Source: Escherichia coli
GTDB taxonomy: Bacteria; Pseudomonadota; Gammaproteobacteria; Enterobacterales; Enterobacteriaceae
Strand: one strand, 5' to 3'
Length of the DNA stretch: 64,000 bases
Assembly: GCF_016903815.1 (NCBI RefSeq)
Contig: NZ_CP069973.1
Position 1 is the first letter of the stretch; every line of letters begins with the position of its first letter. Below, piece after piece: positions 1-47,855 of this stretch. A model generated the notes under the pieces. It made no database searches. It saw only the letters and a list, made by a program, of their open reading frames with translations, and was not told where the DNA came from. A program made the translations under genes and the position numbers.

Positions 1-714
1 TGCGTAACTGTTTTTCCACTATGCTCATAAACCATACTGCCAGAAGCACGGGGAAAACCGTTCCCTGATAGCCAATCATGGCGATTTCAAAACCGAAGAA
101 GTTCATTGTCTGAAATCCCGCAGCAACGCCCCAGGCATTTGTGAGTGCCGGGTGAGTCAGAATCCCTCCTAATGTCGCGCCAAGATAAGGATTTCCACCA
201 AATTCACGAGCAGCAGTAAAGCCAATAAGGATGGGGAGAATAATAAATGCGGCTGAACTGCACATATCCAGCAGGATATAAATCGCATTATCGGTATTCA
301 CCCAGCCATATGTTTTCACCATTCCCAGAAGCCCCATTAATAAACCAGAAGCAACAATGGCTGGAATGATGGGGACAAAAATATTAGAAAGTAGCCGTGC
401 TATTCGCTGAAAAGGATTGAGTTTTTGAGCGGCGAGTCGAGCGATATCTGCTTTACTGGATTCGCTAATACCTGCAACCTGAATAAAGGCAGCATAGACT
501 TTATTAACCACGCCGGTGCCAAAGATAATTTGCATTTGCCCTGAATTACGAAAACAACCTTTCACTCCATCAATCTGGCCAATGGCATGTTGATCGGCAA
601 GTGTGTCGTCAACCAGTACCAGCCGTAGGCGAGTGGCGCAATGTGCTGCACTGGCGATGTTCTCCTTACCACCTAATAAAGGAAGCAACGATTGGGCGAT
701 TTTATCGAAATCCA
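1..714 (-). CDS. scrA: PTS sucrose-specific EIIBC component, N-terminal part (gene continues beyond window start)
   Basis: Minus-strand translation from ATG at 712-714 reads MDFDKIAQSLLPLLGGKENIASAAHCATRL..., a BglF/ScrA-type EIIB-EIIC N-terminus; sits directly downstream of scrK-scrY in the scr operon order. Confidence 0.8.
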
Positions 715-775
715 TATAACCCTCTAATTCATTGTTATTTCAGTAAAAACTTCACATCTGTGAGGTTGTCTGGTA

Positions 776-2317
<1,542 letters not shown>

Positions 2318-2460
2318 TTATAAAAATTGCTAAAATGCTAAACCGGTTTAGGTGTTGATAATAAAGCTGACTTTTTAGCCAAAGCAATTATTTTCGCTAA
2401 ACCGATTTAGTAAATGTGACAGGCACGACAAATCGGGTTACAGATACAACAGCAGGATCA

Positions 2461-3381
2461 CTATTGTGAAGGGAGATCGTGTTGTCGGGGTAAGGCGGTC
2501 ATCGCGCCTTTAGCCGTGGTCGCCAGAGCACCACAAATCTGAGCTTGTACAATGATTCGTTCAAGCTGTCTGGTATTTGTTGGTATTCCAGAATCAGCCA
2601 GACCGGCAAGTAATCCAGCGACAAAAGCATCTCCTGCCCCGGTCGTATCGACGACAGAAACAGGTTTGGCGGGATAGTGGATAAACTGCCCCTGAAAATA
2701 CACAAGTACGCCATTTTTTCCTTGTGTGATAAGCAATAAAGTCAACGAATAACGTTGTACTAATGAATATGCGCCTTGCTGAACCTGGCTTTCGCCACTG
2801 ATGAATAGCAACTCTTCTTCGGACAATTTAGCGATATTCGCCAGCGAAAGTGCGCGATCAAGGTATTTCCTTAATAGCGCTTCACTCTGCCAGAGATCGC
2901 TGCGGATATTGGGATCAAAACTGATGTTTCCGCCAGCCTGACGTATTTTCTCCATAGCCAGAAATGCGGTACTTCGGGAAGGTTCTGCACTGAGCGCAAT
3001 GGAACAAAGATGGAGCCATTCACCCGGCCCAAATGCAGGAAGGCCATCAGGTTGTAAAAAAAGATCGGCACTTGGGCGTACCATAAAGGTAAAGTTTCTT
3101 TCTCCTTGCTCATCAAGTCCTACAGCCACAATTGAGGTGCGATGTTGAGGATCAAGAGACATATAACGTGTATCAACATTTTCTGTACTCAGTGTCTGAT
3201 ACATAAAGCGACCGAAAGGATCATCGCCAACTTTGCCAATAAAGGCACTTTTCCCCCCCAGCCTTGCGATACCGACTGCAACATTAGCAGGCGCCCCGCC
3301 AGGACACTGTAGTAGTCTCCCCTGGCTTTCGGGTAATAAATCAACAACCGCATCACCAAGTACCCATACTCTTGTGCTCAT
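2461..3381 (-). CDS. scrK: Fructokinase (PfkB/ribokinase family)
   Basis: 306-aa ORF MSTRVWVLGDAVVDLLPE... with C-terminal TGAGDAF motif typical of PfkB sugar kinases; first gene of scrK-scrY-scrA. Confidence 0.88.
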   Translation of the reverse strand: MSTRVWVLGDAVVDLLPESQGRLLQCPGGAPANVAVGIARLGGKSAFIGKVGDDPFGRFMYQTLSTENVDTRYMSLDPQHRTSIVAVGLDEQGERNFTFMVRPSADLFLQPDGLPAFGPGEWLHLCSIALSAEPSRSTAFLAMEKIRQAGGNISFDPNIRSDLWQSEALLRKYLDRALSLANIAKLSEEELLFISGESQVQQGAYSLVQRYSLTLLLITQGKNGVLVYFQGQFIHYPAKPVSVVDTTGAGDAFVAGLLAGLADSGIPTNTRQLERIIVQAQICGALATTAKGAMTALPRQHDLPSQ

Positions 3382-3940
3382 AAAGGCTCCAATATACTAA
3401 TTGCTAAACTAATTAAATCGATTTAGCAATTAAAGCATAAACGCTGCTCAGGAGAGAACAATATTCATCAATAGTTACGTGGTATTTTGTTGTGAGAATA
3501 TGTCGGAAATATGGTAAGTGATGAGATAGTCTTCCCCCACCTTCACGACCGCTTTCAATTGCGCCATAGCGAATAAATTTTAACCACAAAAGTAAGAGAA
3601 AGGCCATGATTGAACAGAAAATTACCGACATCGCTCAGGCTAAAACGAACTTTTATCTTTTCAGTATCAATGCTCGTGGCAATCACGCGGGAAAGATCAA
3701 ACTTTCTCACAACCAACTGCTTAACTGGCTGGTATAACAGCCAAAATGACCGTTGCGATGAAGGCTTGCGGGACATCCCATCACTGCCCACAGGAAATAA
3801 GGGAACTCAACTATGATGTAATATTGCATCCAGCACAACATGTTAAATCTTATCAATGGCGTCAGAAAAATGATTATAACAACGCACAGCAATAGCTGAA
3901 ACCTATCAATATAGAACTATACGACTGGTACCAATAAAAA

Positions 3941-3971
3941 GTCTGGACCTACAGAACGTCCAGGCTTTTTT
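3941..3971 (+). terminator. Rho-independent terminator-like hairpin (GTCTGGAC...GTCCAGGC followed by T-run)
   Basis: Inverted repeat with 9-nt loop followed by TTTTTT, seen directly in sequence. Confidence 0.45.
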
Positions 3972-4214
3972 GAAAATGCATCGGTTGATCTCGATGGAAG
4001 GACACAACTGATAGATCATGTTCTTGGACTTCTTACTGAATACGGCATTGTGTTCAGTAAAAGCGCAACAGAATTACGCCCCAAATTACCGGCATTACTT
4101 GAGGATGCGGCGATGCTGTACCTGCGGATTGGTACATGCCGTCTGAACAATATGGCTCCAGAAAAATGGCTGTGAACCGCCCCGGGTTTCCTGGAGAGTG
4201 TTTTATCTGTGAAC

Positions 4215-5105
4215 TCAGGCTGCCAGATCATCGTTTCCGATGGAAGCATAATAAGCTTTTTCTGCTTCTGCCGGAGGAGTATGGCCCAGCCTTCCCAGCA
4301 ATCGTCGATTGTTATACCAGTCCACCCACGTTAGTGTGGCCAGTTCCACTTCTGCACGGTTTTTCCAGCTCTTACGGTGTATTACCTCCGCTTTGTAAAG
4401 ACCATTGATGCTCTCAGCCATCGCGTTGTCATACGAGTCGCCTGTACTCCCTGTTGATGCCAGTAATCCGGCTTCTTTTAGTCGCTCCGTATAGGCCAGT
4501 GACACATACTGAGAGCCTTTATCGCTGTGATGGATGGTGCCAGACGGACGACGGGCCCACAACGCCTGCTCCAGCGCATCCAGCACGAATGTCGTTTCCA
4601 TAGACGATGAGACCCGCCACCCCACGATGTATCCGGCAAACACATCAATGATAAACGCCACATAGACGAAGCCCTGCCATGTGCTGACGTAAGTAAAATC
4701 AGCCACCCACAGCTGGTCAGGTCGTTCTGCCACGAACTGACGGTTTACGCGGTCGCCTGCGGCAACGGCTTTCCGGCTGATGGTCGTACGGACCTTTTTA
4801 CCCCGGAGAACACCGGCAAGTCCCATAACCGCCATGAGACGTGCCACTGTACATCTGGCCACCCTGATTCCTTCCCGTAACAACTGACGCCAGACTTTAC
4901 GCACACCGTACACCTGATGATTTTCATCGTATACGCGCTGTATCTCTCTCTTCAGCCAGTCGTCGTGCTGCGCACGGGCACTGCGTTTATCCGGATGATG
5001 TCGCTGTTGCTGACAATGGTAATACGTTGACGGGGCAATATGCAGTTCGCTGCATACCGGTCCGACCCCGTACTGCTCACGCAGCTTATCCAGCAGTGGC
5101 ATCAT
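4215..5105 (-). CDS. IS629-type transposase OrfB (DDE integrase core)
   Basis: 296-aa ORF with IS3-family DDE catalytic core (e.g. [16 protein letters not shown]). Confidence 0.9.
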
Positions 5106-5428
5106 TTTTTCCAGAGGCGGTCGAACTCCGCCTTCGCAAAATAAGCGGAAGCCTGGCGAAGGATATCGTTACTGCGGCGCAGTTCACGATTTTCACGTTC
5201 CAGCTCTTTCAGACGCTGACGTTCAGCGCTGGTGAGCCCACCATCACCGCCCCCGGTATCCCGCTCATGCTGGCGAACCCAGACACGCAGAGTCTCCGGC
5301 GTACAGCCAATCTTTGGAGCAATGGAACAAATTGCCGCCCACTGTGAGTCATATTCATCCTGACTTTCCAGAACCATACGAATCGCCCGCTGACGGACTT
5401 CGGGGGAAAAACGAGTATTTTTAGTCAT
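5102..5428 (-). CDS. IS629-type transposase OrfA (helix-turn-helix)
   Basis: 108-aa [26 protein letters not shown]...; IS3-family orfA, overlaps orfB for programmed frameshift. Confidence 0.9.
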
Positions 5429-5453
5429 CCTGTTTACCTCTTTCTCAGGGAGT

Positions 5454-8400
5454 TTAGTCTCCAGGATTTCCGGGGCGGTTCAGCTGTTCATTAAAACGTT
5501 GTCCAGGCTGATCATAAAGTGCGCGTAATGTCTCCGCGGATGGCCGCGGTTGCATTTGCTGCATGCAGGGTTTCTGGTGGTAATCAAAATACTGTGGCAG
5601 ATGCTGGATCTCTGCTTTGTTTTCAATTACCCGTTGAAGGGCTCTTTGACGCAACTCTCTTGATGATTTGTCACGGATCGATTCCAATTGTAGCTGGCTG
5701 CCGCTACTAATTCGCTTACGAGCAGCATCAAAATCAAAGCGAATAGCCAATAGACTCGGCGTAGTCTCACTTAGCTGCAATTCCCCTAATTGCACTGATT
5801 CACGCTTATCTTTAATATAAACAATGATCTTATCATCAAGTTCAAAGCTGAGGTCAGCACCGGATTCCGTAGTATATGGGTAGAGTAAGCAACCACTCGG
5901 TGATTCCTGAAAGTCAGTAGAGTCGATGTTGACTATATCTCGTAGGTCTACTTCTGTATCAGATAATGCCTGCCATAACTCAATTGGGCTTGACTCACTA
6001 CTATCGAAGTCATCTTCATCCATCTCTTGATTAGGATTAGCTCGCTCAATGATGGCATCAATTACTGGCTCGAGGTTAAACAGTAGTTCAATAAAAGTAT
6101 TACGCTGATTAAGTGAGCCACGTTGTAATGAAAGTTGAGTATTAATTTTAGCCTGGGAATATTTACCAGCCTTTATACTTTCTTCGATCGATAATCCTTT
6201 TTCATACACTATTCTATTAATAGTGCGATTATCAGGATCTAAGTCTATCAATAGCCGCTCTCCTAGGCCAGTGATGTAACAACGCAATTCATGCGCAAAG
6301 CGTGGGTTAGATGACCAGTTACATTGAAAATAATAGATCCCATCATTTTGTTCTAGAAGCTTCACTTCTTGCGGCCAATCATCTGTGCCCCAGCAAACAG
6401 GAATTACCTTATCCTGTGACTCAGACGCCACAACTTGATTAATCTCAGCTTGTTCCGGTGCTCGAATTGACTGCAGCAAAGGATCGAGCGCGATAGGTAT
6501 ACCGTCAACGGTTTGTTTTGCGCGTTCTAGCTCAGCCTGCACCAGTACTGGCATATCTTCACTAAATAGCTCCTCCACCATACGATATACTGCAAAGCAA
6601 TCTCGCCCAAAAGCATCAGTACTTTCGGGATTCTCTGGCTGGTAGCGATTATCTGCAGTTAATTCATCACTGAATTCAAGCAATCCAATCAGAGTAATTA
6701 CTGTCTGCTCCCCGACTTGTACCAGCAGTTTCTCTGGGCAAAGATCTCCATGAGGTAACTGCTTTTCATGAAAAGCATGAATGGTGTTGATCAACTTTTC
6801 CGCAATTGTAAAACGTTGGGATTGTACTAACACGTTCTCAGCAATAAACTGTGACCACGGTAGGCCATCCACATACTCGCTCACTACATACAAGCCGCCT
6901 TGTCCTAATAGTCCATAGGACTGCACCTTAGGAGTTGGCAGATTTATATGCGTAAGCTTATCGATCCGTTGCTTAAAAGCGTGGATACGGCGGTTAACAC
7001 CAGGTTGTTGAGGGGTCAAAATAACACCATCCCACAATTTTACCTGCAGAGCTTTCCCACCTTGTTCACAGTGATAACTGATGCTGCCAGTCGTAGCAAT
7101 AGCAGCAAGAGCAGAGTAAACCATAGACAACTGTTCAGGAAGTGGAGGAAACTCAATTAACACACCAACGCTGTTCATCCCTTCGCGAAAGAATTTGTTT
7201 TGCTTTAATTCTTGATAAATCTGGTTAGCTTCATCAAATTCTTGGCTATGTTCCTTAGTAGCTGCATTAAACTCATTGAGCATTATGTCCGCACGTGGAA
7301 AGCGTTTACTTGGCTCAAGGTTAAGAGCTTGCTCAAACCAGCTATTTAGAATACCGCTAAAAGGATCAGTTAATGGAGCTCTCCATTCAGGCATCTGTCC
7401 AGGAGTCAGTAATGATTCACCTGCAAAACAAATACGATAAGCAATTACAGCCAACATGAATACATCTAGGCGATAGGGCTCAACTGCTTCTTCAAAAGCA
7501 TCTTCGGGCAAAATATATGGAGCACTTTGCAATGTCGGACGCAATGACTCTAGGCTATTATGTCCCTCCAGTGAGGCTGCGCCAAAGCCAGTAACGACAA
7601 TGCTCTTCTGATCCCCTGCGTACCATAGATTGTGCGGGTCAATATCACAATGACTGATACCCAAGCTATGTAATTCCGAGAATGGAGCTAATAATGCACG
7701 AACGCGATCAATACGCTCAGATTTACTCCATCCGTCAGCTTCGCTATCTAGAATCTCATCTAATCGGCTAAAACTACGGCGTAACTCATACAGCTCACGG
7801 GCATCATCAGTTATATCCTCCTCGGATAGTTCCCTTACAGCACGCAACATATAATCCTGCATAGTTGCGCTGCCATGACGAACTAGGCGACCGACTCGAG
7901 TCTCACGCAGAGCTATCTCAGCCCACAATGTTTGCATTGCGTTTGCTACACCCAAGGCATCAAAGTTCCACTGCCGTAGCAGACCTCTGTGTTGACTATT
8001 GTCTTTGTGGGTAGCCCTGAATTCGTTGTAGACCATGTGAGGGTGACTAAAGAATGGCTTATCGTTCGCAAGATAACCGCTTTCTTTTAGTGGCAAAGGC
8101 CTGACTTTTGGTCCTTCAAAGAAGGACTTAATTATAGGTAATGCCTCATCAGAATTTGGTCGAGGCTTTCCCCCTTCAAAAAGATGAAAAAAGTTAGTGT
8201 GTTGCACCAGCTTTTCGTAATTTTTTGGGTTACCTATAGTCAAGAATTCATCACGGGTATGAACATAGCGCCTCTCACTTAATGGCAAGTTTTCAGGACC
8301 AGCTGTGCCACACAGCACTACATGAGCCTCAACATGCAAAAAGTAACCCAGCTTACGAGATAACTCTTCCTGCAACAAATCTTTTAGTCGCAGTGCATGC

Positions 8401-8678
8401 TCACGCTTGATCTGATAGGGACTTTTGCCTCGTGACTTACCATTTTGCAGCCACTTCCCCCCTTCAAATGTGATGTTACCATTCCACTCTTTAAGCTCGA
8501 CTAATAGCAGACGGTCAGCAGTAATAATTAGCATATCGATTTCCATCGACCCTTGGCTATCAGTAACAACTAAGCCAGCATAGCCAAACCAACTATCTGG
8601 TAACTGCTTAACCATCATATCAACTGTTTTGGTTTCGCTGCGGTGCAGGCCAGCACCACCTACTATCTGATACTTCAC
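5454..8678 (-). CDS. Large uncharacterized protein: N-terminal NERD-like nuclease-related domain followed by two protein-kinase-like domains and a ~370-aa C-terminal region; native 3' end replaced by IS629 sequence
   Basis: 1074-aa ORF; NERD-like motif [22 protein letters not shown]; kinase catalytic-loop-like motifs [11 protein letters not shown]...GFG and [11 protein letters not shown]; last 9 codons (LNRPGNPGD) are encoded by the IS629 inverted repeat. Confidence 0.7.
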
Positions 8679-8888
8679 GTTTTCTCCTGCACCACTAAAT
8701 TTTTGTTGGTGGTAGTCCAGTAAAAATGGATGTAGTTATCTAAGACAGCGCATAGATTGTGCCTGCCTAACCCTAAAAAGTGTAATTATGAAAAGTAACG
8801 CTAGAAATTCTATACCGTTCGCAAAGAGAACACTTTTCAAAGATATATCATCATCTTGAACATGTCACTATAATGGTGAATCCATAAG

Positions 8889-9050
8889 ATGCGAACACCA
8901 CATCTTGTGCCACTCAGCAAACAGGCTGTAGCCATACTGATAAAACTTCAGACATGGGCAGTTGAAAATGGTCTGGTCTTTACGGGAGCACATGACCCGC
9001 GTAAACCAATCAGCGAAAACACCGTAAATAAGGCCCTTAGGTGCCCTTGA
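8889..9050 (+). pseudogene. Tyrosine-recombinase (P4-type integrase) C-terminal fragment
   Basis: Translation MRTPHLVPLSKQAVAILIKLQTWAVENGLVFTGAHDPRKPISENTVNKALRCP resembles an integrase catalytic-domain segment; only 53 codons. Confidence 0.5.
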
Positions 9051-9145
9051 ACCACTATATCCAGACAGCCGTTGAGCTTAAGTTAACGTTACCGAGTGAC
9101 GTTGATATTCCCTCGGTGAGAGATAACCAAGGCACCATGAGGATG

Positions 9146-9773
9146 CTATTCGTTATAGTGTTCGAACGCCTCCGCAAGGTTTTTTACTGCCGTTAACACG
9201 TCCGGTTTAGGTATGATACTGATGTAATCGCTCTTCATCGTTTTCACGAACCGTTCTCTCATTCCATTACTCTGAGGGCTACTGACTGCCGTCGTGCAGA
9301 GCTCCAGATTCAACTCTCTGGCGAACTGCCGTGTTTCATGAGTTGTATAAGCCGAACCGTTATCGGTCAGCCACTGGATGGGCCATCCCGGTCTATCGCC
9401 AAAGCGTTTTTCTATCGCTCCTGACATGACATCCTGCACCGTTGCTTTGCCATAACCTCCCGTGCTTGCGGCCCAGTCTATGGATTCAAGATCGCAACAG
9501 TCCAGTGCGAACGTGACACGCAGTTTTTCGTCATCATCACAACCGAACTCAAAGCCATCGGCACACCAGCGCGGGTCGCTTTCCTTCACCGATATTCGGG
9601 CCTTTATGTTCCCTCTGCGGTCGTGAAGGTTTGTCATGTAATAACAACAGGTTATTCTCGCTCATTATTCGATAAACGCGATTTGCATTCACGAACTGCA
9701 GTCCTTCGTTAAGACTGCCGTCTGAGAATAGCCCGGACACGACGATAGCCATCGAATCGCTGAACAGCGTCAT
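9146..9773 (-). pseudogene. IS3-family transposase orfB remnant (frameshifted, truncated)
   Basis: Two overlapping minus-strand ORFs (9146-9637, 9549-9773) with integrase-core-like sequence (e.g. [20 protein letters not shown]); no orfA or inverted repeats. Confidence 0.6.
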
Positions 9774-9879
9774 TCGGCAGGCGATAAAGAAGGTGTCGTT
9801 ACGGGGAAGTCATCTTCACAGAGATTTTCAGTCAGTTAGCATTACCGACATTCATTCACCAACTTACCGGAGATAATCA

Positions 9880-10209
9880 ATGTCAAAACCCCGATGGACC
9901 ATTGAACAGAAAAGGCAGCACGTTGCTGCCTGGCGCGCCAGTGGTCTTACACGTCAGCAATACTGTGAACTCAACGATATTCCCTTCACATCACTTCGCG
10001 AATGGCCGCAGGATGTCGCAAAAGCTGAACGCCGGGCAAATGAACCGACCGTTCTTCCCGTTCATATTGCGCCACCACTGCATGCTGATGTACCACAGCC
10101 CGTCACGAATGAGCCAGTCACGCTCTTCCTTCCCGGCGGAGTACGGATGTGCTGTCAGCCGTCACAACTTACCGATGTCTTCAGGGCGCTCAAATATGCT
10201 CAGTCCTGA
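9880..10209 (+). CDS. IS66-family TnpA-like small protein
   Basis: 109-aa ORF immediately upstream of and overlapping tnpB. Confidence 0.55.
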   Translation: MSKPRWTIEQKRQHVAAWRASGLTRQQYCELNDIPFTSLREWPQDVAKAERRANEPTVLPVHIAPPLHADVPQPVTNEPVTLFLPGGVRMCCQPSQLTDVFRALKYAQS

Positions 10210-10588
10210 TAATGTCTTCATCGCGATTAAACCTGTTGACATGCGCCGGGGCATCGACACACTGACGCAGTATATACAGGATGAACTCCGGTCGACATGG
10301 CATGAGGGAGCCGCCTTCGTCTTTGTTAACAAAGTCCGTTCGCGTATCAAAGTTCTCCGGTGGGATAAACACGGGGTGTGGTTGTGTACCCGCCGTCTGC
10401 ACAAAGGCAGCTTCCGCTGGCCACGTGCAAATGATGCTGCCTGGCACCTAACTCCCGACGAGTTTAACTGGCTGATTGCCGGTGTTGACTGGCAGCAGGT
10501 TAAGGGACATGACCTGACGAAATGGGGCTGGCAGAATGAACCTGAACTGCGCCCTGAAAACACGCAAAATACACTGCTAACTCAGTGA
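10196..10588 (+). CDS. IS66-family accessory protein TnpB (Orf2)
   Basis: MLSPDNVFIAIKPVDMRRGIDTLTQYIQDELR... matches the IS66 Orf2 pattern; ATG at 10196 is in frame within the longer 9902-10588 ORF. Confidence 0.8.
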   Translation: MLSPDNVFIAIKPVDMRRGIDTLTQYIQDELRSTWHEGAAFVFVNKVRSRIKVLRWDKHGVWLCTRRLHKGSFRWPRANDAAWHLTPDEFNWLIAGVDWQQVKGHDLTKWGWQNEPELRPENTQNTLLTQ

Positions 10589-10594
10589 AAAATA

Positions 10595-11472
10595 ATGAAT
10601 ATCCGTATCTGGAGTGGTATACTCCCCTGTATGGATATCTCCGCTCTCAACACCACGAATGACATCGAAAAACTGCGTGCTATGGCACTTACCATGGTAC
10701 AAAAAGTCATGTCGGAGAATGCCGAAAAAGAGCGGGAATTACTGGAGAAAAGCCGGCGCATCCAGCTTCTGGAAGAAATGCTGAAACTGGTTCGTCAACA
10801 GCGCTTCGGTAAAAAATGTGAAACGCTGGCTGGTATGCAACGCTCCCTGTTCGAAGAGGATGTTGATGTCGATATCGCCGCGCTTACCGCACATCTGGAT
10901 AAACTGCTCCCGCAATCCCCTGAAGAAGACGAAAAAGCGTCCCGTTCACGCCCGATACGCAAACCCTTACCGGCTCATCTTCCACGGGTGGAAAAAATTA
11001 TCCAGCCGGACACTGACCATTGCCCTGAATGTGACGAGCCGCTGCACTATATCCGTGATGCGGTGAGTGAAAAGCTGGAGTATATTCCCGTTCACTTCGT
11101 GGTGAACCGTTATGTCCGTCCGCAATACAGTTGTTCCTGTTGCCAGAAGGTGTTCAGCGGTGAAATGCCGGCACATATCCTCCCGAAAAGTGCCGTTGAG
11201 CCATCAGTCATCGCACAGGTGATCATCAATAAATACGGTGACCACCTGCCTCTGTATCGCCAGCAACAGGTCTTTGCCCGTTCAGTGTCGGGCTGCCCGT
11301 CAGTTCGATGGCTGACATGGTTGGCGCGGCGGGTGCCGCATTATCTCCCCTGGCGGCGTTACTCCATCGCGAGTTGATAAACCGTCCGGTGGTGCATGCA
11401 GATGAGACTACCCTGAAGATCCTGAACACTAAGAAAGGCGGTAAATCCTGCTCCGGTTATCTGTGGGCAACC
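10595..11472 (+). pseudogene. IS66-family transposase TnpC, frameshifted and truncated
   Basis: N-terminal leucine-zipper-like region and zinc-finger motif CPECDEPL...CSCC; continuation ADETTLKILNTKKGGKSCSGYLWA lies in another frame (11308 onward). Confidence 0.75.
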
Positions 11473-12274
11473 AGCCTTCCGCCTCGTCCGGATCCGCTGT
11501 TTCCAGTGTCATCAGGAGCCGGCTGCATGCTTCCCCTGCCGTTTTACCCAGCGTGGCCCGCTGCGAAAGACGGATGCGGTTTCCGGCACCCAGCCCACTG
11601 CGGTTATCGATATGGACCTTAACCGGATCGGGTTCGGTGATAAGTGCGCGGGTATCCGGTGCCAGCAGACTCACCAGAGCCCGGATGCCTTCAGCATTGC
11701 GGGTGGGTAATCGCATGGCACCCAGTAAGGCCAGGAAACGGGAAACCGGCGTTGCCACCTGTTCAGCGGTGCCGGGTATACCGAGTCCGACCAGTCCCAG
11801 CAGACACTGCGATGTGGCATCGCGCCCCCCCTCCTCGAAAGTGGCCGGATACGCATATTTTCGCCAGATCCGGTAGTACTGGGTGGTGATGCGGTGGCTG
11901 AAAATATCCAGAAATGAGGTGAGCGCCTCATGTCCTTCACGGCGCTGCGCAATATCATCCAGCCAGGACGTCGGCAGAGGTGAGTCCACCCCATACATTC
12001 CGAGAAATGTCGTGCGGATCGTTGGGGGTAATGTCGGACGGTCTTCGTCGATCTCCACCGCTTTCAGGGTGCTGACCGGGAATCCCATCCCGGGCCAGGG
12101 CCTGAATCGCACCGGGTCATCGCCCGGATGGCTGGTCGTGCCCAGTTTTGGCCCGTCCGGATTTTCCAGCTCCAGCAGCTGGCAGAAACGATAAAAACTG
12201 GCCCGCCAGATATCGTTGTTAAGGGCCAGGGCCTGCGTCAGCCCGGTACGTGCTGGCTGTGATTCTCTTTTCAT
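11429..12274 (-). CDS. tssG: Type VI secretion baseplate protein TssG, C-terminally truncated at the IS66 junction
   Basis: 281-aa ORF with TssG-like segments (FYRFCQLLELENPDGPKLGT, PVRFRPWPGMGFP, FLDIFSHRITTQYYRIWRKY); 3' end overlaps IS66-derived sequence. Confidence 0.7.
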   Translation of the reverse strand: MKRESQPARTGLTQALALNNDIWRASFYRFCQLLELENPDGPKLGTTSHPGDDPVRFRPWPGMGFPVSTLKAVEIDEDRPTLPPTIRTTFLGMYGVDSPLPTSWLDDIAQRREGHEALTSFLDIFSHRITTQYYRIWRKYAYPATFEEGGRDATSQCLLGLVGLGIPGTAEQVATPVSRFLALLGAMRLPTRNAEGIRALVSLLAPDTRALITEPDPVKVHIDNRSGLGAGNRIRLSQRATLGKTAGEACSRLLMTLETADPDEAEGWLPTDNRSRIYRLS

Positions 12275-13929
12275 CTCAGTCGTTTCCCTGTGGGTTGCAG
12301 TACCAGTGTGAGCTGGTTGAAAAGGTGAACATCAGCATAGAGCGCAAAGAAACGGTGCAGCATCTCCCCGAAGAGATTCACATCGCCCTCGCCGGCAAAA
12401 TTATCCATATTCAGCGTGACCTCAATGTCCACGCCACGGAGCATAAAGCCCTTTTCAAAACGGCGGATCAGGGTGTGCTTCACAGCAACGATGGCTTCAA
12501 GCCGGCGGCGGTTCATTTCATCGTCGGTCCAGTCATAGAGCGCCAGCGTCCCCCGCAGCACCTCCGGATTGTCCATCATGCTGAGAAAGTTTGATCCGAG
12601 GTGACTCATCACCCGCCAGTGAAACCGGTCATTTGCCGGGGGATACAGTGGCATCGTCGGTGCGGTCAGGTTCAGGACTCTGACGGGGACTTTGCCGGTT
12701 TTGACCACCCTGTCCAGGAGCGTACTTTCCAGCGCCCTGCGCGGAAGCTGCCCGTTGGTCGCGGTGATTCGCATCGAGAGGGACTCCGGTTTATCGGACA
12801 ACTGCTCCAGCTCGAACGAACGCCCCCCGAGAACTAACCATGTGTCATACAGGCCGGAGGGTCCCCGTTTCACACGGGTGTGGTAATAACGTTCAGGAGC
12901 ATCGTGGCGCATCATACCGCCCCGGTGCCGGAAGCTGGTGAACGGGACATAAGGGTGTCTGCCGTTCTTCACCGAGCCGTGAATGTTATCGACGCTGTAA
13001 ATTTCGGTGTGACCATCCTGAAGACGCAGCGGCCTGAGCAGGTACTCGTTATCCAGCGGGTTAAGGATCAGCGGGTCGGCTTCCAGGGTAAAGAGATTGA
13101 TAACCGGCGCACAGTGCAGGCGGAAGTTTTCTGTCTCAAAAGGCAAACCGGATGACCAGGCTTCACTGAGCACAATGTCGATTTCAAACCAGGTACTGGC
13201 CGCAGTGAGCCCAATGGTGTCGAGGCCGCGCAGTTCAACAAACATAAACTTCGGACGGAAGCTGAAATACTCCAGCAGCAACTGGTAACCACTGAAGGCT
13301 GTATCAGCTTTCTTCCACAGGCAGTCATTGTCGTCAAAGCCCATGGGTCTGCACCAGCCGTCAAACTGACGACGTCCGGTATATGTCCCGGCATGACGCG
13401 CATACATGGCATGTACACGCCGGGTCATTGCCAGATGTAGCGCAGCACTTACCGGCGCCTCTGCGTTAAGAAAAATGGCGACTTTGTCGATCCCGGCTTT
13501 ACTCCAGTCCACTTTTTCAGGGCATTCGAAGCGCAGACGGATAGCAGAGCGGCCATCGGATTCAGTATGGAGACGGGCATCTGCAAGGTGCAGCGGTTGT
13601 AGCAACACATCGCGGGTCGCCCGGTACTGGCAGGCGGTTTTATGCGGCCCGACAGGACGGGACAGAACGGAAAAGCCTTCAGCCAGTATTTCGGCCTGAC
13701 GCAGACTACGCCAGTCAGGCGAGAACTCAACGATGGCCAGCGACGGGATAGTCCGCATATAGTGCGGCCACAGCAGACTCACCAGACCTTCGGTGAGCTC
13801 CGGCAGGTCATCATCCAGCTTTTCACGCAAACGTCCCATCAGGAAGGCAAAGCCTTCAAACAGACGTTCCACACTGGGATCGCAGGCACCAGGCTTATCC
13901 AGATTCAGCATTGCTGACGTAATCCACAT
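12271..13929 (-). CDS. tssF: Type VI secretion baseplate protein TssF (N-terminal region possibly disrupted)
   Basis: 552-aa ORF with TssF-like N-terminal motif DPSVERLFEGFAFLMGRLREKL; a further TssF-like piece lies in another frame at 13895-14116. Confidence 0.7.
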   Translation of the reverse strand: MWITSAMLNLDKPGACDPSVERLFEGFAFLMGRLREKLDDDLPELTEGLVSLLWPHYMRTIPSLAIVEFSPDWRSLRQAEILAEGFSVLSRPVGPHKTACQYRATRDVLLQPLHLADARLHTESDGRSAIRLRFECPEKVDWSKAGIDKVAIFLNAEAPVSAALHLAMTRRVHAMYARHAGTYTGRRQFDGWCRPMGFDDNDCLWKKADTAFSGYQLLLEYFSFRPKFMFVELRGLDTIGLTAASTWFEIDIVLSEAWSSGLPFETENFRLHCAPVINLFTLEADPLILNPLDNEYLLRPLRLQDGHTEIYSVDNIHGSVKNGRHPYVPFTSFRHRGGMMRHDAPERYYHTRVKRGPSGLYDTWLVLGGRSFELEQLSDKPESLSMRITATNGQLPRRALESTLLDRVVKTGKVPVRVLNLTAPTMPLYPPANDRFHWRVMSHLGSNFLSMMDNPEVLRGTLALYDWTDDEMNRRRLEAIVAVKHTLIRRFEKGFMLRGVDIEVTLNMDNFAGEGDVNLFGEMLHRFFALYADVHLFNQLTLVLQPTGKRLR

Positions 13930-14936
13930 TCAACAGTGCAATACGCAACCGTTCTTCCGGCCCTGCCTCTGTCTGCCGGCACTCATCCAGGACATCCTGC
14001 CATTGCCGGCGAAGACGGGGCGATTCATTCAGTTCTGTAAAACAGTATTTATCCGCCAGATAATCAATTCGTGTACGCATACTGAAAAGAATTCCGTATA
14101 AAGATTCAGCAGACAAAACTTTATCAGTCTGTAAAAATTAACGGAAGAGTCGATATTTCTCCCGGTCATCACCGGATGATTGTTGCAATAACCAGTGGCA
14201 TCAGAGACTGAACAGCCGTTTTTAACGCAACGTATTGCTCTGATGTATCAGGCCGGGTAACCCGAAAACACCTTTCCACCCGACATTGTCCGCCCGTATC
14301 CATCCCCCGCCAGGTCTGCTGCAGTAAATCCACCACTTGCGAACATTGTTCATCAACTGTGACACTGGCTCGCGGGTGACAAATACTCGTCTGGCTGAGC
14401 AGCAACAGGCATCGCATTGTTGCTCCTCCATGTTGTTCCCGCAACCAGCGTAATACCACCGGCGATGATGGACTGGTCGTGTGATTACGCTCAGTAATAC
14501 GTTCATAAAAGGAAGTACAGAATGCATGAATCTGTTGCCCGTTGATGTTTCCTTCTGCCGAATGGAGCGTGAAGTGAAATGCCAGCAGACGCGGCCAGTG
14601 GTCCACCCCCTGCTGAACAAAACGCCGGATTTCCCCCGGCGCTGAAAGTAAGGCTTCGGTTATTTGCACTATTTTACCCCTGTGAATTTTGTTAAGCCGG
14701 TGCAGACACACGGAAAACGCACATCAACACCAGCACAGTACGATACAAACACCAGTGACTGACGGGACGAAAGGAATAACGAATCAGTCAGGAAAGAGCT
14801 ACAACCTGCTGGCTGACCGGAGAGGGTCAGCAGGAAAATGAACGGTAATGTCGCCAGCACCAGGGACAGAGCTGATTTCCGCAATACCAGCGCCGGCATT
14901 TTGCACATTGCCAGCGTACCGGCATCACAACTCGTT

Positions 14937-15170
14937 TCATGCTGCTCCTCGTGATTCCTCAATTCGCTGCTGCATCCACTGCTCTACTTCACTTTTGTAC
15001 CAGCGGCTGCTGCGCCCCAGTTTGATGGGTTTAGGGAAATGGCCTTCACTGATCAGCTTGTAAAACCATTTGTCGGTCATACCAGTGAAGCTGGTGATGT
15101 AGTTCATGTCGATCAGGGGATCGTCGGCACGCAGCAATACGCTGTCGTGACCTGTCATTGAGGTCAACAT
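14937..15170 (-). CDS. alpA: AlpA-family phage regulatory protein (DNA-binding)
   Basis: 77-aa ORF, ...FTGMTDKWFYKLISEGHFPKPIKLGRSSRWYKSEVEQWM matches the AlpA helix-turn-helix pattern. Confidence 0.75.
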   Translation of the reverse strand: MLTSMTGHDSVLLRADDPLIDMNYITSFTGMTDKWFYKLISEGHFPKPIKLGRSSRWYKSEVEQWMQQRIEESRGAA

Positions 15171-15238
15171 GGTCAGAATGTCCTCTGTGAGATTTATGAA
15201 TGTTGGGCAAATGCGGGTGAATCTGCTGAGCTGAGCTT

Positions 15239-15841
15239 TCAGAGCTGGCCTGCTACGGGATACCAGGGATTACCGGCGAGGTAACGGGCTTCCGGATCGC
15301 GCACACCACGACGATCGCGGGCGAAATCACTGAACGCCCATATCAGCTCTTTGAGTCTCTCTTCGCAGTCCGGTGAACAACTGTCCAGCACCACATCCCG
15401 GGTGATCTGCTTCTGGTACGGTGCTGCTTCACCCGGTGATGCGAAGCCCAGTACGTTGCTCCAGGCATCCAGAATCAGCCGATCCAGTTCAGGGCCGTCG
15501 AAATACTCCTGTCTGACGCACAGCACCACGTGGTATTCCGGTTTTTCAGGATGACGTGTCAGGAGCCAGCAGAGGTCACGTCCGGGTGTTGCATTCATCA
15601 GCGCACTGACGGTTTCGATAAAGGCCATACCGAACCAGGTTTTTCTGTCGCTGAAGATGTTGCCATGTTCCCCCGGCAGACGAAGCAGGATCCGCCGTAT
15701 TCGGGAGCAGGACTGCTCGCGCAACACACGGTTGAGAACGCCGATGATTTTGTTCTGATAAGATGGCCAGAAGGGGGCCAGGCTATAGTCGAAATAAGGG
15801 ATAGCATTCATAAGATATGCTCCGTTATGCGCAGCCCACAA
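15239..15841 (-). CDS. YagK/YfjJ-family (inovirus Gp2-like) protein
   Basis: 200-aa ORF; family assignment from recollection of E. coli cryptic-prophage YagK/YfjJ proteins. Confidence 0.55.
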   Translation of the reverse strand: MWAAHNGAYLMNAIPYFDYSLAPFWPSYQNKIIGVLNRVLREQSCSRIRRILLRLPGEHGNIFSDRKTWFGMAFIETVSALMNATPGRDLCWLLTRHPEKPEYHVVLCVRQEYFDGPELDRLILDAWSNVLGFASPGEAAPYQKQITRDVVLDSCSPDCEERLKELIWAFSDFARDRRGVRDPEARYLAGNPWYPVAGQL

Positions 15842-16068
15842 TGCGTCCTGCCCGTGAATAAGCTGACGTGTTATGGTTTGCGGATGGGGTTGATGGAATA
15901 AGTGAAGAACCGGGGCAGAACGGGAAGATCAGGTCACCGACAAGGGACAGAACACCGGATGTGGTTCAGAGTGAATGATCTCCGTTGACTTCAGTTCACA
16001 TCATTAAGCAAGGCGGTAAGGTTTTACCGACGGAATGTTTCCAGGACAGGAAGCTCAGGATTTAAGCT

Positions 16069-18128: not shown

Positions 18129-18884
18129 ATGTTAATGGCGCAGCAGTTATCTTTCAGATTATTAAGGGGAAACAAGAGTATGGCAAGATGTACAGCTCCT
18201 GTACGTGGACATAGCTCAGCAGCAGCTGCTGCTGCCTGTCCCGCATGTCGTAATCGCAGTGGTTATCGCCGCAGTAGCTACAGTTATGATAGTTACCCTT
18301 CTTACTCATCAGGCTCTAGCGGTGGCGGAAGTTATGGAGGCAGTAGCGGTGGTTCCAGCAGCAGCGCGAAGCCACGTTGGTCAAAATCAGGGTCTTCCGT
18401 TTCTTACACAACAGCCCAAGTACAATCACTCACACCAATTCGACAAGCGGTAGAGAAACTTGCCATTGAGCAACCTGATCTGCGTGATGTCTTTCTTTGC
18501 CATGCTTGGGATGACCGACAAGGTATTGCCAAAGAGTTACACGATTTGCTCGAAGCGGCAGGTGTCAAAGTATGGTTCAGCGAAAAGGATCTTGCCCTTG
18601 GTGTTCCGATGATGCGTGCCATTGATAAAGGATTAGCAAACTCTCGAATCGGCTTGGTTTTAGTGACACCTGCATTGTTAAACCGTCTTCCTAAAGAAGG
18701 CGTTGCTGATAAAGAACTTTCCGCCTTACTGGCAGGCAACCAACTCGTTCCCATCGTGCATAACACGACGTATGAAGCTCTCCGTAATGTCAGTCCTTTG
18801 CTTGCATCCCGAAGCGGCCTCGACACGGGAGAAGATACATTGGCAGTTGTTGCAACAAAAATTGCAGAGCTGATCACTGTTTAG
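18129..18884 (+). CDS. TIR-domain protein with Ser/Gly/Tyr-rich low-complexity N-terminal region
   Basis: C-terminal ~140 aa DVFLCHAWDDRQGIAKELHDLLEAAGVKVWFSEKDLALGVPMMRAIDKGLANSRIGLVLVTPALL fits the TIR pattern; start codon uncertain (18129, 18135 or 18180). Confidence 0.75.
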   Translation: MLMAQQLSFRLLRGNKSMARCTAPVRGHSSAAAAAACPACRNRSGYRRSSYSYDSYPSYSSGSSGGGSYGGSSGGSSSSAKPRWSKSGSSVSYTTAQVQSLTPIRQAVEKLAIEQPDLRDVFLCHAWDDRQGIAKELHDLLEAAGVKVWFSEKDLALGVPMMRAIDKGLANSRIGLVLVTPALLNRLPKEGVADKELSALLAGNQLVPIVHNTTYEALRNVSPLLASRSGLDTGEDTLAVVATKIAELITV

Positions 18885-46823: not shown

Positions 46824-46835
46824 TACGCTACCGCC
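46824..46835 (-). promoter_or_regulatory. ops (operon polarity suppressor) element GGCGGTAGCGTA in kpsM leader (RfaH-dependent antitermination)
   Basis: Minus-strand GGCGGTAGCGTA is the reverse complement of plus-strand tacgctaccgcc, just upstream of the kpsM start. Confidence 0.7.
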
Positions 46836-47855
46836 CCTGGCTTAACAGCTACCAATACACTGGAGGTAATACTTGACTTGTTTGTAACTGGATAAAATTC
46901 ATTCGGACGGCTTGACCTTTTAATAGCCAAAAACAATTTCAGCAGAAATTATTTCCGCAGGGATAAATAGATCTATTTCCGTCTCGTTTCTTCTAATCCA
47001 TTCTTCAGGCATGAATGTATTCGGTCTTCTGGTAATTTCAGAAAACTGGCCGTTTTAGAATGCAGAGTTAATTTCTCAGGAAATTATTTTTTGTGATTAC
47101 TGTTAACTACTTGATTATAATATCCCCTATGGATTTTATGCGTAACAATACCTACAATCTGTTTCAAACCAGAACGCACGCGATTGATTACCAATAAATT
47201 GTTCACCGAGAAACTATTTCCCTATTTAAAATTCACTCGTGTACTTCTTATTTATATCTACAGCCCCCTCTTTACAGCCATATTTGTGATTCATATCACA
47301 TTTAAATGGTGTTATTTAAGTCGCATCAATAATCCCGAAGGTAATTATTTTCGTCGATTAAAATATACATCTTGATTATTTTGTGTGTTTATTTTAACCA
47401 GTGTTACAACCAACACCATCCCTCAGTAGATATACCTGAGCAGACATTTCTTAAAATCAACGAATAGTTTCACTGGAAATTATTATGCTTATTTGAAATT
47501 CCCTTTCTGATTATCTCCAGGAATTTTACTAATTTCCAAGCTACACAAAATACAGATCACACAAGAATTATCCTATATGTTTTGGCCTATCAATTGTTAC
47601 TCAATGATTTATTGCAACTATTAATAATCATAATGTGTCAAAACACTTAAGCAACTTTACAGTCTGAGAAAGGTGTCGATTAACGAAGGCTACATGGTGA
47701 AAAACAGGTTCCTTCAGTGTTACCGAATATTCCGTGGTGGTCTGGAGGGAGATAATTCTTGCTACATCGAAACTCAGCCCGGTAAGCGGGTTTGACAGTT
47801 CCGCACTCACCATTGGGCTAAGGGTTATCAGGTGGGGTTAAGGAAATGGCAATAC

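Follow-up and report, generated by a model that had tools for sequence, protein, structure and literature searches.

The anti-phage system Mokosh was defined by Millman et al. 2022 (bioRxiv 10.1101/2022.05.11.491447), who described type I as an RNA-helicase (COG1112) gene with a Ser/Thr kinase domain accompanied by a second gene. Only two type I systems, from E. coli SEC470 and E. coli ETEC H10407, and one type II system were reported as verified (Millman et al. 2022). The SEC470 system encodes an MkoA of 1652 aa labelled 'Kinase-Helicase' and an MkoB of 478 aa labelled 'HTH' (Millman et al. 2022, supplementary tables), and the H10407 system encodes an MkoA of 1215 aa and an MkoB of 602 aa labelled 'HTH-PLD' (Millman et al. 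2022). Mokosh defence was lost both in helicase ATP-site mutants and in PLD active-site mutants, none of which are mutants of the allele considered here (10.1101/2022.05.11.491447). The NERD domain has already been tabulated as a Mokosh type I domain (review, PMC10952713). A literature search for studies of the Mokosh mechanism returned nothing beyond Millman et al. 2022, a paper on eukaryotic homologues, and reviews, and a sequence search for a solved Mokosh structure matched only Upf1-like helicases and ordinary kinases.

Here, we compare these systems with an open reading frame (ORF) at positions 5454..8678 of a 64,000-nucleotide stretch of Escherichia coli DNA (contig NZ_CP069973.1), hereafter referred to as the window. 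We conclude with high confidence that this ORF arose when IS1203 truncated mkoA, the gene for the Mokosh type I large subunit, in a recent event. In the window, mkoA runs into the end of IS1203 beside the scr genes, and everything after codon 1065, including the helicase core and mkoB, is gone.

The reading frame and the intact mkoA of strain 222

The ORF lies on the minus strand, starts with GTG, and encodes 1074 aa (ORF list and translation), and as a reading frame it is exactly what the initial annotation had proposed. The same GTG is the start chosen by RefSeq in strains 222 and 2779. The features on which the comparison with the intact gene depends are as follows.

8684..8688, minus strand: Shine-Dalgarno-like AGGAG, 5 nt 5' of the GTG start (direct sequence reading)
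5483..8678, minus strand: mkoA 5' fragment, codons 1-1065 of 1652, with 100% nucleotide identity to L001 9001-12196 (WP_000877066.1, strain 222)
5454..5482, minus strand: IS-derived tail of the ORF, encoding LNRPGNPGD and a stop when read from position 5483, the final base of mkoA

Among the PADLOC models, the ORF product is best matched by MkoA (PDLC03921, E 2.2e-188), with a match confined to profile positions 2-1030 of 1607, and this partial coverage pointed to a truncated gene. The gene is intact in approximately 70 complete E. coli genomes. One of them is that of strain 222 (4959 bp, 1652 aa, WP_000877066.1), in which the product covers positions 2-1598 of the 1607 in the same model with a score of 1305 bits. 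Over codons 1-1065, the ORF and the strain 222 gene show 100% identity. Likewise, a tblastn search of the window with full-length MkoA matches residues 1-1065 to positions 8678-5484 at 100%, and the 3196 bp of mkoA that remain show zero further mutations relative to the intact allele.

In strain 222, the last base of mkoA overlaps the start of mkoB, a 515-aa gene that matches the PADLOC model for MkoB (PDLC03923, E 1.1e-61). The C-terminal third of the intact MkoA matches Upf1/NAM7, Sen1, DNA2, and IGHMBP2 over residues 1311-1625 (E 1e-18 to 1e-28, with 1e-23 to 1e-28 for the first three), and the protein carries a Walker A motif at residue 1084 and a Walker B motif at approximately residue 1347. 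The intact protein begins with a NERD domain, continues with a pair of kinase-fold domains and a pair of beta-rich domains, and ends in a 587-aa SF1 helicase of the Upf1-like type. The strain 222 gene pair is a Mokosh type I anti-phage system. No Pfam match of any kind, and no PLD, was found for strain 222 MkoB, even at E <= 10. Since PLD is absent from this protein and SEC470 MkoB is labelled only 'HTH', a PLD nuclease in the partner protein is not shared by all long-form Mokosh type I systems.

The initial annotation linked the ORF to phage defence, which was right, as the ORF encodes part of an MkoA belonging to Mokosh type I (PDLC03921). It also proposed a candidate undescribed gene whose architecture matched no named system, a view that could not be upheld: the long form of MkoA is modelled in PADLOC, and a 1652-aa example was verified by Millman et al. 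2022. The architecture is already known as Mokosh type I to both PADLOC and DefenseFinder, and the exact truncated protein is itself in RefSeq on 3 contigs (WP_251301667.1, 'NERD domain-containing protein kinase family protein').

The IS1203 junction and the missing 15.9 kb

The 3' end of the ORF abuts an insertion sequence, on the other side of which lie genes for sucrose utilization (scr).

4173..5482, minus strand: complete IS1203 (IS3 family, 1310 bp), identified from RefSeq, which annotates an identical stretch in strain 2779, and from its terminal repeats as read
5102..5428 and 4215..5105, minus strand: two-frame transposase of IS1203
2461-3381: scr sucrose kinase, other side of IS1203
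776-2293: scr sucrose porin, other side of IS1203
from 715 downward: scr PTS IIBC, other side of IS1203

At the junction in the window, AATGAACAGC is followed directly by TGAACCGCCCCGGAAATCCTGGAGACTAA, whereas AATGAACAGCAGCTAATGG stands at this place in the intact gene. TGAACCGCCCCGG forms the end of the complete 1310-bp IS1203, and therefore codons 1066-1074 and the stop codon of the ORF are IS sequence, derived from the IS1203 terminal inverted repeat. The frameshift pseudoknot of the element is also recognized (Rfam ALIL, 5031-5147, 121.5 bits). The break falls 19 codons ahead of the helicase Walker A motif, and the entire helicase core is removed. Searches of the whole 64-kb window by blastn and tblastn gave no match either to mkoA residues 1066-1652 or to mkoB (tblastn with strain 222 MkoB). 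Consequently, what had been taken for a complete 1074-aa gene is a gene of 1652 codons that IS1203 has cut short, with the helicase and mkoB missing from the window. The IS-free allele that the initial annotation suggested reconstructing cannot be rebuilt from the window, because the 3' 1763 bp of mkoA have been deleted and not displaced.

Comparison with strain 222 indicates the extent of the loss. Window positions 5483-16000 match strain 222 at 100% identity along 10.5 kb (from 846722 backwards), with the edge of the match exactly at mkoA nt 3196, and window positions 1-5486 are 100% identical to strain 222 862623-868108, which lies approximately 15.9 kb downstream of mkoA nt 3196 in the same orientation. 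The four bases CAGC are common to both partners at the breakpoint, and the exact break is thus ambiguous by 4 bp. In strain 222, the stretch of approximately 15.9 kb that is missing from the window contains the 3' 1763 bp of mkoA, mkoB, and then transposase fragments and a group II intron. The window looks like a strain-222-type island from which approximately 15.9 kb was deleted beside the scr-side IS1203, and we infer that this deletion was mediated by IS1203.

Strain 2779, which is 99.996% identical to the window over positions 14943-64000, carries a near-identical truncation (WP_259409795.1), with its junction at mkoA nt 3193, 3 bp earlier than the nt 3196 of the window. Derivation of the window from the strain 2779 arrangement through recombination of its two IS1203 copies was considered and rejected because the mkoA/IS junctions differ by these 3 bp (3196 vs 3193). 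Direct deletion from an arrangement like that of strain 222 is the better fit.

The setting of the ORF in an accessory island with mobile elements was judged correctly at the outset. Elsewhere in the window, a ThsB-like TIR gene is located at 18129-18884, and no ThsA partner for it was found within approximately 1.5 kb on either side.

Domain anatomy of the remaining fragment

The domains that remain in the fragment were delimited with profile searches, an alignment of 35 homologues, and an AlphaFold model.

8313..8639, minus strand: NERD domain (PD-(D/E)xK-type nuclease-related), residues 14-122 (Pfam PF08378, E 6.7e-14)
7254..8081, minus strand: kinase-fold domain 1, residues ~200-475 (Pfam Pkinase, alignment, AlphaFold pLDDT mostly 80-95, Foldseek)
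6459..7232, minus strand: kinase-fold domain 2, small and Bud32/Kdo-like, residues ~483-740 (PADLOC/NCBIfam models, alignment, AlphaFold)
6039..6410, minus strand: beta-rich domain, residues ~757-880 (AlphaFold pLDDT 80-94)
5619..5987, minus strand: beta-barrel and long helix, residues ~898-1020

The motifs quoted in the initial annotation could all be located: the 22-letter NERD-like motif at residues 46-67, the first 11-letter kinase-like motif at 343-353 with GFG at 364-366, and the second 11-letter motif at 643-653. Both the NERD-like motif and the two kinase-like regions proved to be genuine, the second of these regions through PADLOC models together with AlphaFold and Foldseek, and the first through a significant Pfam match. 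The profile-HMM check that had been proposed (Pfam and defence models) thus returned significant NERD and kinase matches, with MkoA as the best PADLOC model. The proposed structure prediction and structural search returned two consecutive kinase folds, for which all Foldseek matches in the PDB were kinases. The NERD match spans model positions 5-110 of 111, and residues D48, E61, and K63 are invariant in the 35-homologue alignment, which extends down to 27% identity. The AlphaFold model, which was built on the 35 homologues, has a mean pLDDT of 84.9, and Foldseek matched it to kinases with E values of 1e-8 to 1e-10. The top match is a duplicated-kinase-domain EGFR entry with 602 aligned columns, followed by CaMKII, AMPK, and PknB.

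Kinase-fold domain 1 matches Pfam Pkinase with E 1.1e-4 over residues 317-418. According to the 35-sequence alignment, it retains H343-x-D345 (HRD-type), N350, the APE-like PE at 391-392, D405, and R459. Throughout the family, R235 occupies the place of the VAIK Lys and S/T-G-F the place of DFG, and neither a Gly-rich loop nor a DFG Asp was found in the alignment. The domain has the appearance of either a pseudokinase that has been conserved or an atypical enzyme. Kinase-fold domain 2 gives only a weak match to Pfam Pkinase (E 0.061, residues 595-657), but over residues ~570-673 it is matched by PADLOC kinase models (PD-T4-6 at approximately 1e-12, and Stk2) and by NCBIfam Bud32 at 2.8e-7, all within a range of approximately 1e-7 to 1e-12. 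The family consensus for this domain is VK...HGDLHPxN...LDxG (35-sequence alignment). The ORF protein retains Lys547 and HGD645, while the Asn of the catalytic loop is exchanged for Lys650 and the Asp of DxG for Glu. These two replacements (Asn to Lys, Asp to Glu) belong to a clade of proteins at least 62% identical to the ORF protein, from E. coli, Shewanella, Pantoea, and Vibrio. The set of residues of an active eukaryotic kinase (Gly-rich loop, VAIK Lys, HRD Asp, catalytic-loop Asn, DFG Asp) is incomplete in both domains, which, as judged from their alignments, are best termed kinase-fold or pseudokinase-like.

The initial annotation recognized no motif in the C-terminal ~370 residues. This holds for the domain at residues 757-880, which has no Pfam match and no family assignment, but the AlphaFold model resolves the region into two beta-rich domains. 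The domain at residues 898-1020 weakly resembles the accessory barrel of Upf1-like helicases and may tentatively be equated with this barrel and the stalk, which lie ahead of RecA1 in those proteins. No Pfam helicase match was obtained in the ORF product.

Fate of the fragment and its relation to known systems

The 5' part of mkoA is present in 72 of 5426 complete E. coli genomes (megablast), and the 3' part and mkoB are present in 70, a difference that fits with loss in some genomes. In most of the 72, the match ends at query base 3196 inside a longer gene annotated as 'AAA domain-containing protein'. Among 113 homologues, with identities down to 27%, nearly all of the complete ones have lengths of 1615-1681 aa and contain AAA_11/AAA_12 helicase domains; the shorter entries either bear a partial label or belong to short contigs. 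The search for a natural stand-alone protein of ~1070 aa gave no convincing candidate, as the short matches are partial or located at contig ends. They include a 1064-aa 'partial' RefSeq form, which stops where draft assemblies break at the IS. As far as these homologues indicate, the 1074-aa form is not a natural architecture.

Because Mokosh defence needs the helicase ATP-binding site (Millman et al. 2022), the fragment is likely to be without Mokosh protection. We consider it most likely to be a pseudogene that has so far acquired no point mutations and that would confer no Mokosh protection. In the intact protein, the kinase-fold domains would probably act as regulatory or sensing modules, and NERD may be the nuclease effector of the long form. 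With no detectable PLD in the partner MkoB and an invariant NERD site, the latter is a candidate effector nuclease in the strain 222-type subfamily.

Several other readings of the ORF have to be weighed against truncation of mkoA. We assign almost no probability to a complete, undescribed 1074-aa defence or signalling gene: the ORF on its own does show a start, a ribosome-binding site, and a stop, and it sits in an accessory island, but its last 9 codons and stop belong to IS1203, the rest is 100% identical to codons 1-1065 of a gene encoding 1652 aa, and PADLOC covers the family with its MkoA model, a member having been experimentally verified in 2022. It is also very unlikely that the truncated NERD and tandem kinase-fold protein is expressed and retains or gains a function of its own, either as a stand-alone defence or regulatory protein similar to MAD6 or to the N-terminus of PglW, or as an unregulated nuclease or toxin. 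Although similarity to MAD6 (E 4.1e-39) and to PglW (E 2.8e-23) extends over the first ~490 residues, both scores lie far below the curated cut-offs, and the spot-checked neighbours of the ORF included no partner gene of MADS or BREX. An intact frame with a ribosome-binding site, a clean stop, and no decay means that a stable 1074-aa product could still be made, and the catalytic-type NERD residues D48/E61/K63 are present; however, no natural full-length homologue stops near residue 1070, and all complete ones have the helicase. The truncated allele occurs in more than one assembly, yet it is rare (2 of the 72 complete genomes that carry the 5' part, from totals of 72 vs 70, and the exact protein on 3 contigs). 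Its zero divergence from the intact allele implies that the event is recent, and its persistence is therefore uninformative with regard to selection. More broadly, we regard it as very unlikely that the fragment is made and acts alone, for example as a deregulated nuclease, a decoy, or a dominant-negative partner of another defence protein. As a separate matter, long-form Mokosh type I may rely on its invariant NERD site and not on PLD as the effector nuclease.

Interpreted as a truncated mkoA, the locus should be counted as Mokosh-negative in strain-level inventories of defence systems, and the RefSeq-style label 'NERD domain-containing protein kinase family protein' hides a broken defence gene. 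Work on the Mokosh mechanism could possibly be aided by the invariant D/E-K site of NERD, the DFG-Asp-less kinase-fold domain 1, the PLD-less partner, and the clade-specific change in kinase-fold domain 2. If NERD were the effector of the long form, the natural truncation would provide a ready-made separation-of-function allele.

In relation to the described systems, BREX PglW and MADS MAD6 share with the ORF product an N-terminal NERD domain followed by a kinase-fold domain, and the similarity is significant over residues ~10-487, but the architectures diverge beyond residue 490. Membership in either family was rejected, with scores of 81.6 bits against a curated cut-off of 990 for PglW (NF033442) and 134.6 bits against a curated cut-off of 460 for MAD6 (NF047741). 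Compared with the Upf1-like SF1B helicases (Upf1/NAM7, Sen1/SETX, DNA2, IGHMBP2), the ORF product lacks both RecA-like domains and hence cannot be a helicase. The short form of Mokosh type I (PDLC03920, H10407) likewise consists of a subunit with a kinase and an Upf1-like helicase and of a separate partner gene. The short-form model matches the intact allele over its helicase part (E 1.4e-120) and the fragment in the window only weakly, over the kinase region (2.9e-16). Whereas H10407 MkoB is an 'HTH-PLD' protein, the strain 222 partner is without a Pfam PLD.

The closest relative is the long form of Mokosh type I (PDLC03921, SEC470), in which a NERD-like domain is similarly followed by a kinase-fold domain that has HRD without the DFG Asp and then by further domains. 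The SEC470 and intact strain 222 alleles agree in a total MkoA length of 1652 aa and in a two-gene operon with an MkoB homologue, but their sequences are divergent. The ORF protein shows 28% identity with the available N-terminal 399 residues of SEC470 MkoA over residues 30-368 (E 7e-42), in an alignment that takes in both the HRD loop and the NERD-type motif, and SEC470 MkoB is 23% identical to the strain 222 partner (E 5e-15). The Lys and Glu replacements in kinase-fold domain 2 are a further difference, particular to the E. coli/Shewanella/Vibrio clade. Of the features of Mokosh type I, the ORF in the window has the kinase-type domain; a helicase, a full-length MkoA match, and an adjacent mkoB are absent, residues 1066-1652 having been lost together with the partner gene, while the intact strain 222 allele does have the Mokosh helicase. 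Judged by sequence, the intact locus is a divergent member of the Mokosh type I long form, and the copy in the window is a broken one.

Junctions of IS1203 with mkoA

The break between mkoA and IS1203 lies at mkoA nucleotide 3196 in the window (window 5483-5492), as opposed to nucleotide 3193 in strain 2779 (positions 12190-12200 of locus L002, which carries a near-identical truncation), and at the junction mkoA contains AATGAAC, which resembles the IS1203 terminus TGAACC. These two junctions could represent either a preferred site of insertion or a pair of rearrangements that are related to each other. IS1203 is flanked on both sides by an identical tetranucleotide (plus-strand GCTG; window 4169-4172 and 5483-5486), and GCTG is also the target duplication of the scr-side IS1203 copy in strains 222 and 2779. 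CAGC is also present by chance in mkoA at the break, and this leaves a 4-bp ambiguity in where the deletion ends. Among the homologues, a 686-aa fragment labelled 'nuclease, partial' (P0017) is 97% identical and occurs in several assemblies of Salmonella enterica serovar Kentucky, where the gene may also be truncated in the lineage, or may be split at contig ends.

Neighboring loci in the window

Remnants of other mobile and accessory genes lie 5' of mkoA, and several further loci are found across the remainder of the window, as follows.

11429-13929, minus strand: tssG and tssF remnants (type VI secretion), from annotation of identical sequence in strains 222 and 2779
18129-18884, plus strand: TIR-domain protein, 251 aa, matching PADLOC ThsB1 (Thoeris; E 3.6e-128)
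About 26.5-31 kb: CP4-44-like module, from annotation of the 99.996%-identical strain 2779
About 32.5-47.7 kb: kps capsule cluster (kpsF/E/D-type export genes, kdsB)
46824-46862, minus strand: JUMPstart element (Rfam, 57.1 bits)
About 59784-64000: sslE (lipoprotein metalloprotease), 5' of the gsp type II secretion operon

In both strains, where the sequence is identical, the tssG and tssF remnants are classed as partial pseudogenes; they are adjoined by IS66 fragments and an integrase fragment located 5' of mkoA at about 8886-9750. The TIR-domain protein has an N-terminal segment rich in Gly and Ser. Inspection of approximately 1.5 kb on each side of its gene revealed no ThsA-like ORF, and the approximately 1.5 kb lying 5' of it (16.6-18.1 kb, GC ~33%) contains no ORF of at least 50 aa. 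This TIR gene could be an orphan ThsB or a component of another TIR system. The serotype-specific middle of the kps cluster (about 39-46 kb) has a very low GC content (28-33%), and one gene in this region is annotated as 'phage baseplate protein' in strain 2779. Annotation of the same strain lists a CbtA toxin, a YeeU antitoxin, RadC, an antirestriction protein and DUF932 in the CP4-44-like module, and flags the strain 2779 copy of sslE as a pseudogene on account of a stop codon within the gene.

The second kinase-fold domain and the MkoB partner

Two features bear on the long-form Mokosh subfamily.

About 6675-6752, minus strand (ORF residues 643-668): clade-specific change in kinase-fold domain 2 of MkoA, from the homologue alignment
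Strain 222 locus L001, 13959-15506: MkoB partner of long-form Mokosh, missing from the window

In the alignment, the family consensus HGDLHPxN...LDxG is replaced by HGDLCPEK...LLEFS in the clade comprising E. coli, Shewanella, Pantoea and Vibrio, such that both metal-binding positions of the domain are substituted. A Pfam search of strain 222 MkoB returned no match, to PLD or to any other domain. In this respect it resembles the verified MkoB of E. coli SEC470, which is labelled only 'HTH'. Mokosh as published, with a helicase and a PLD, does not match the long-form subfamily of strain 222.
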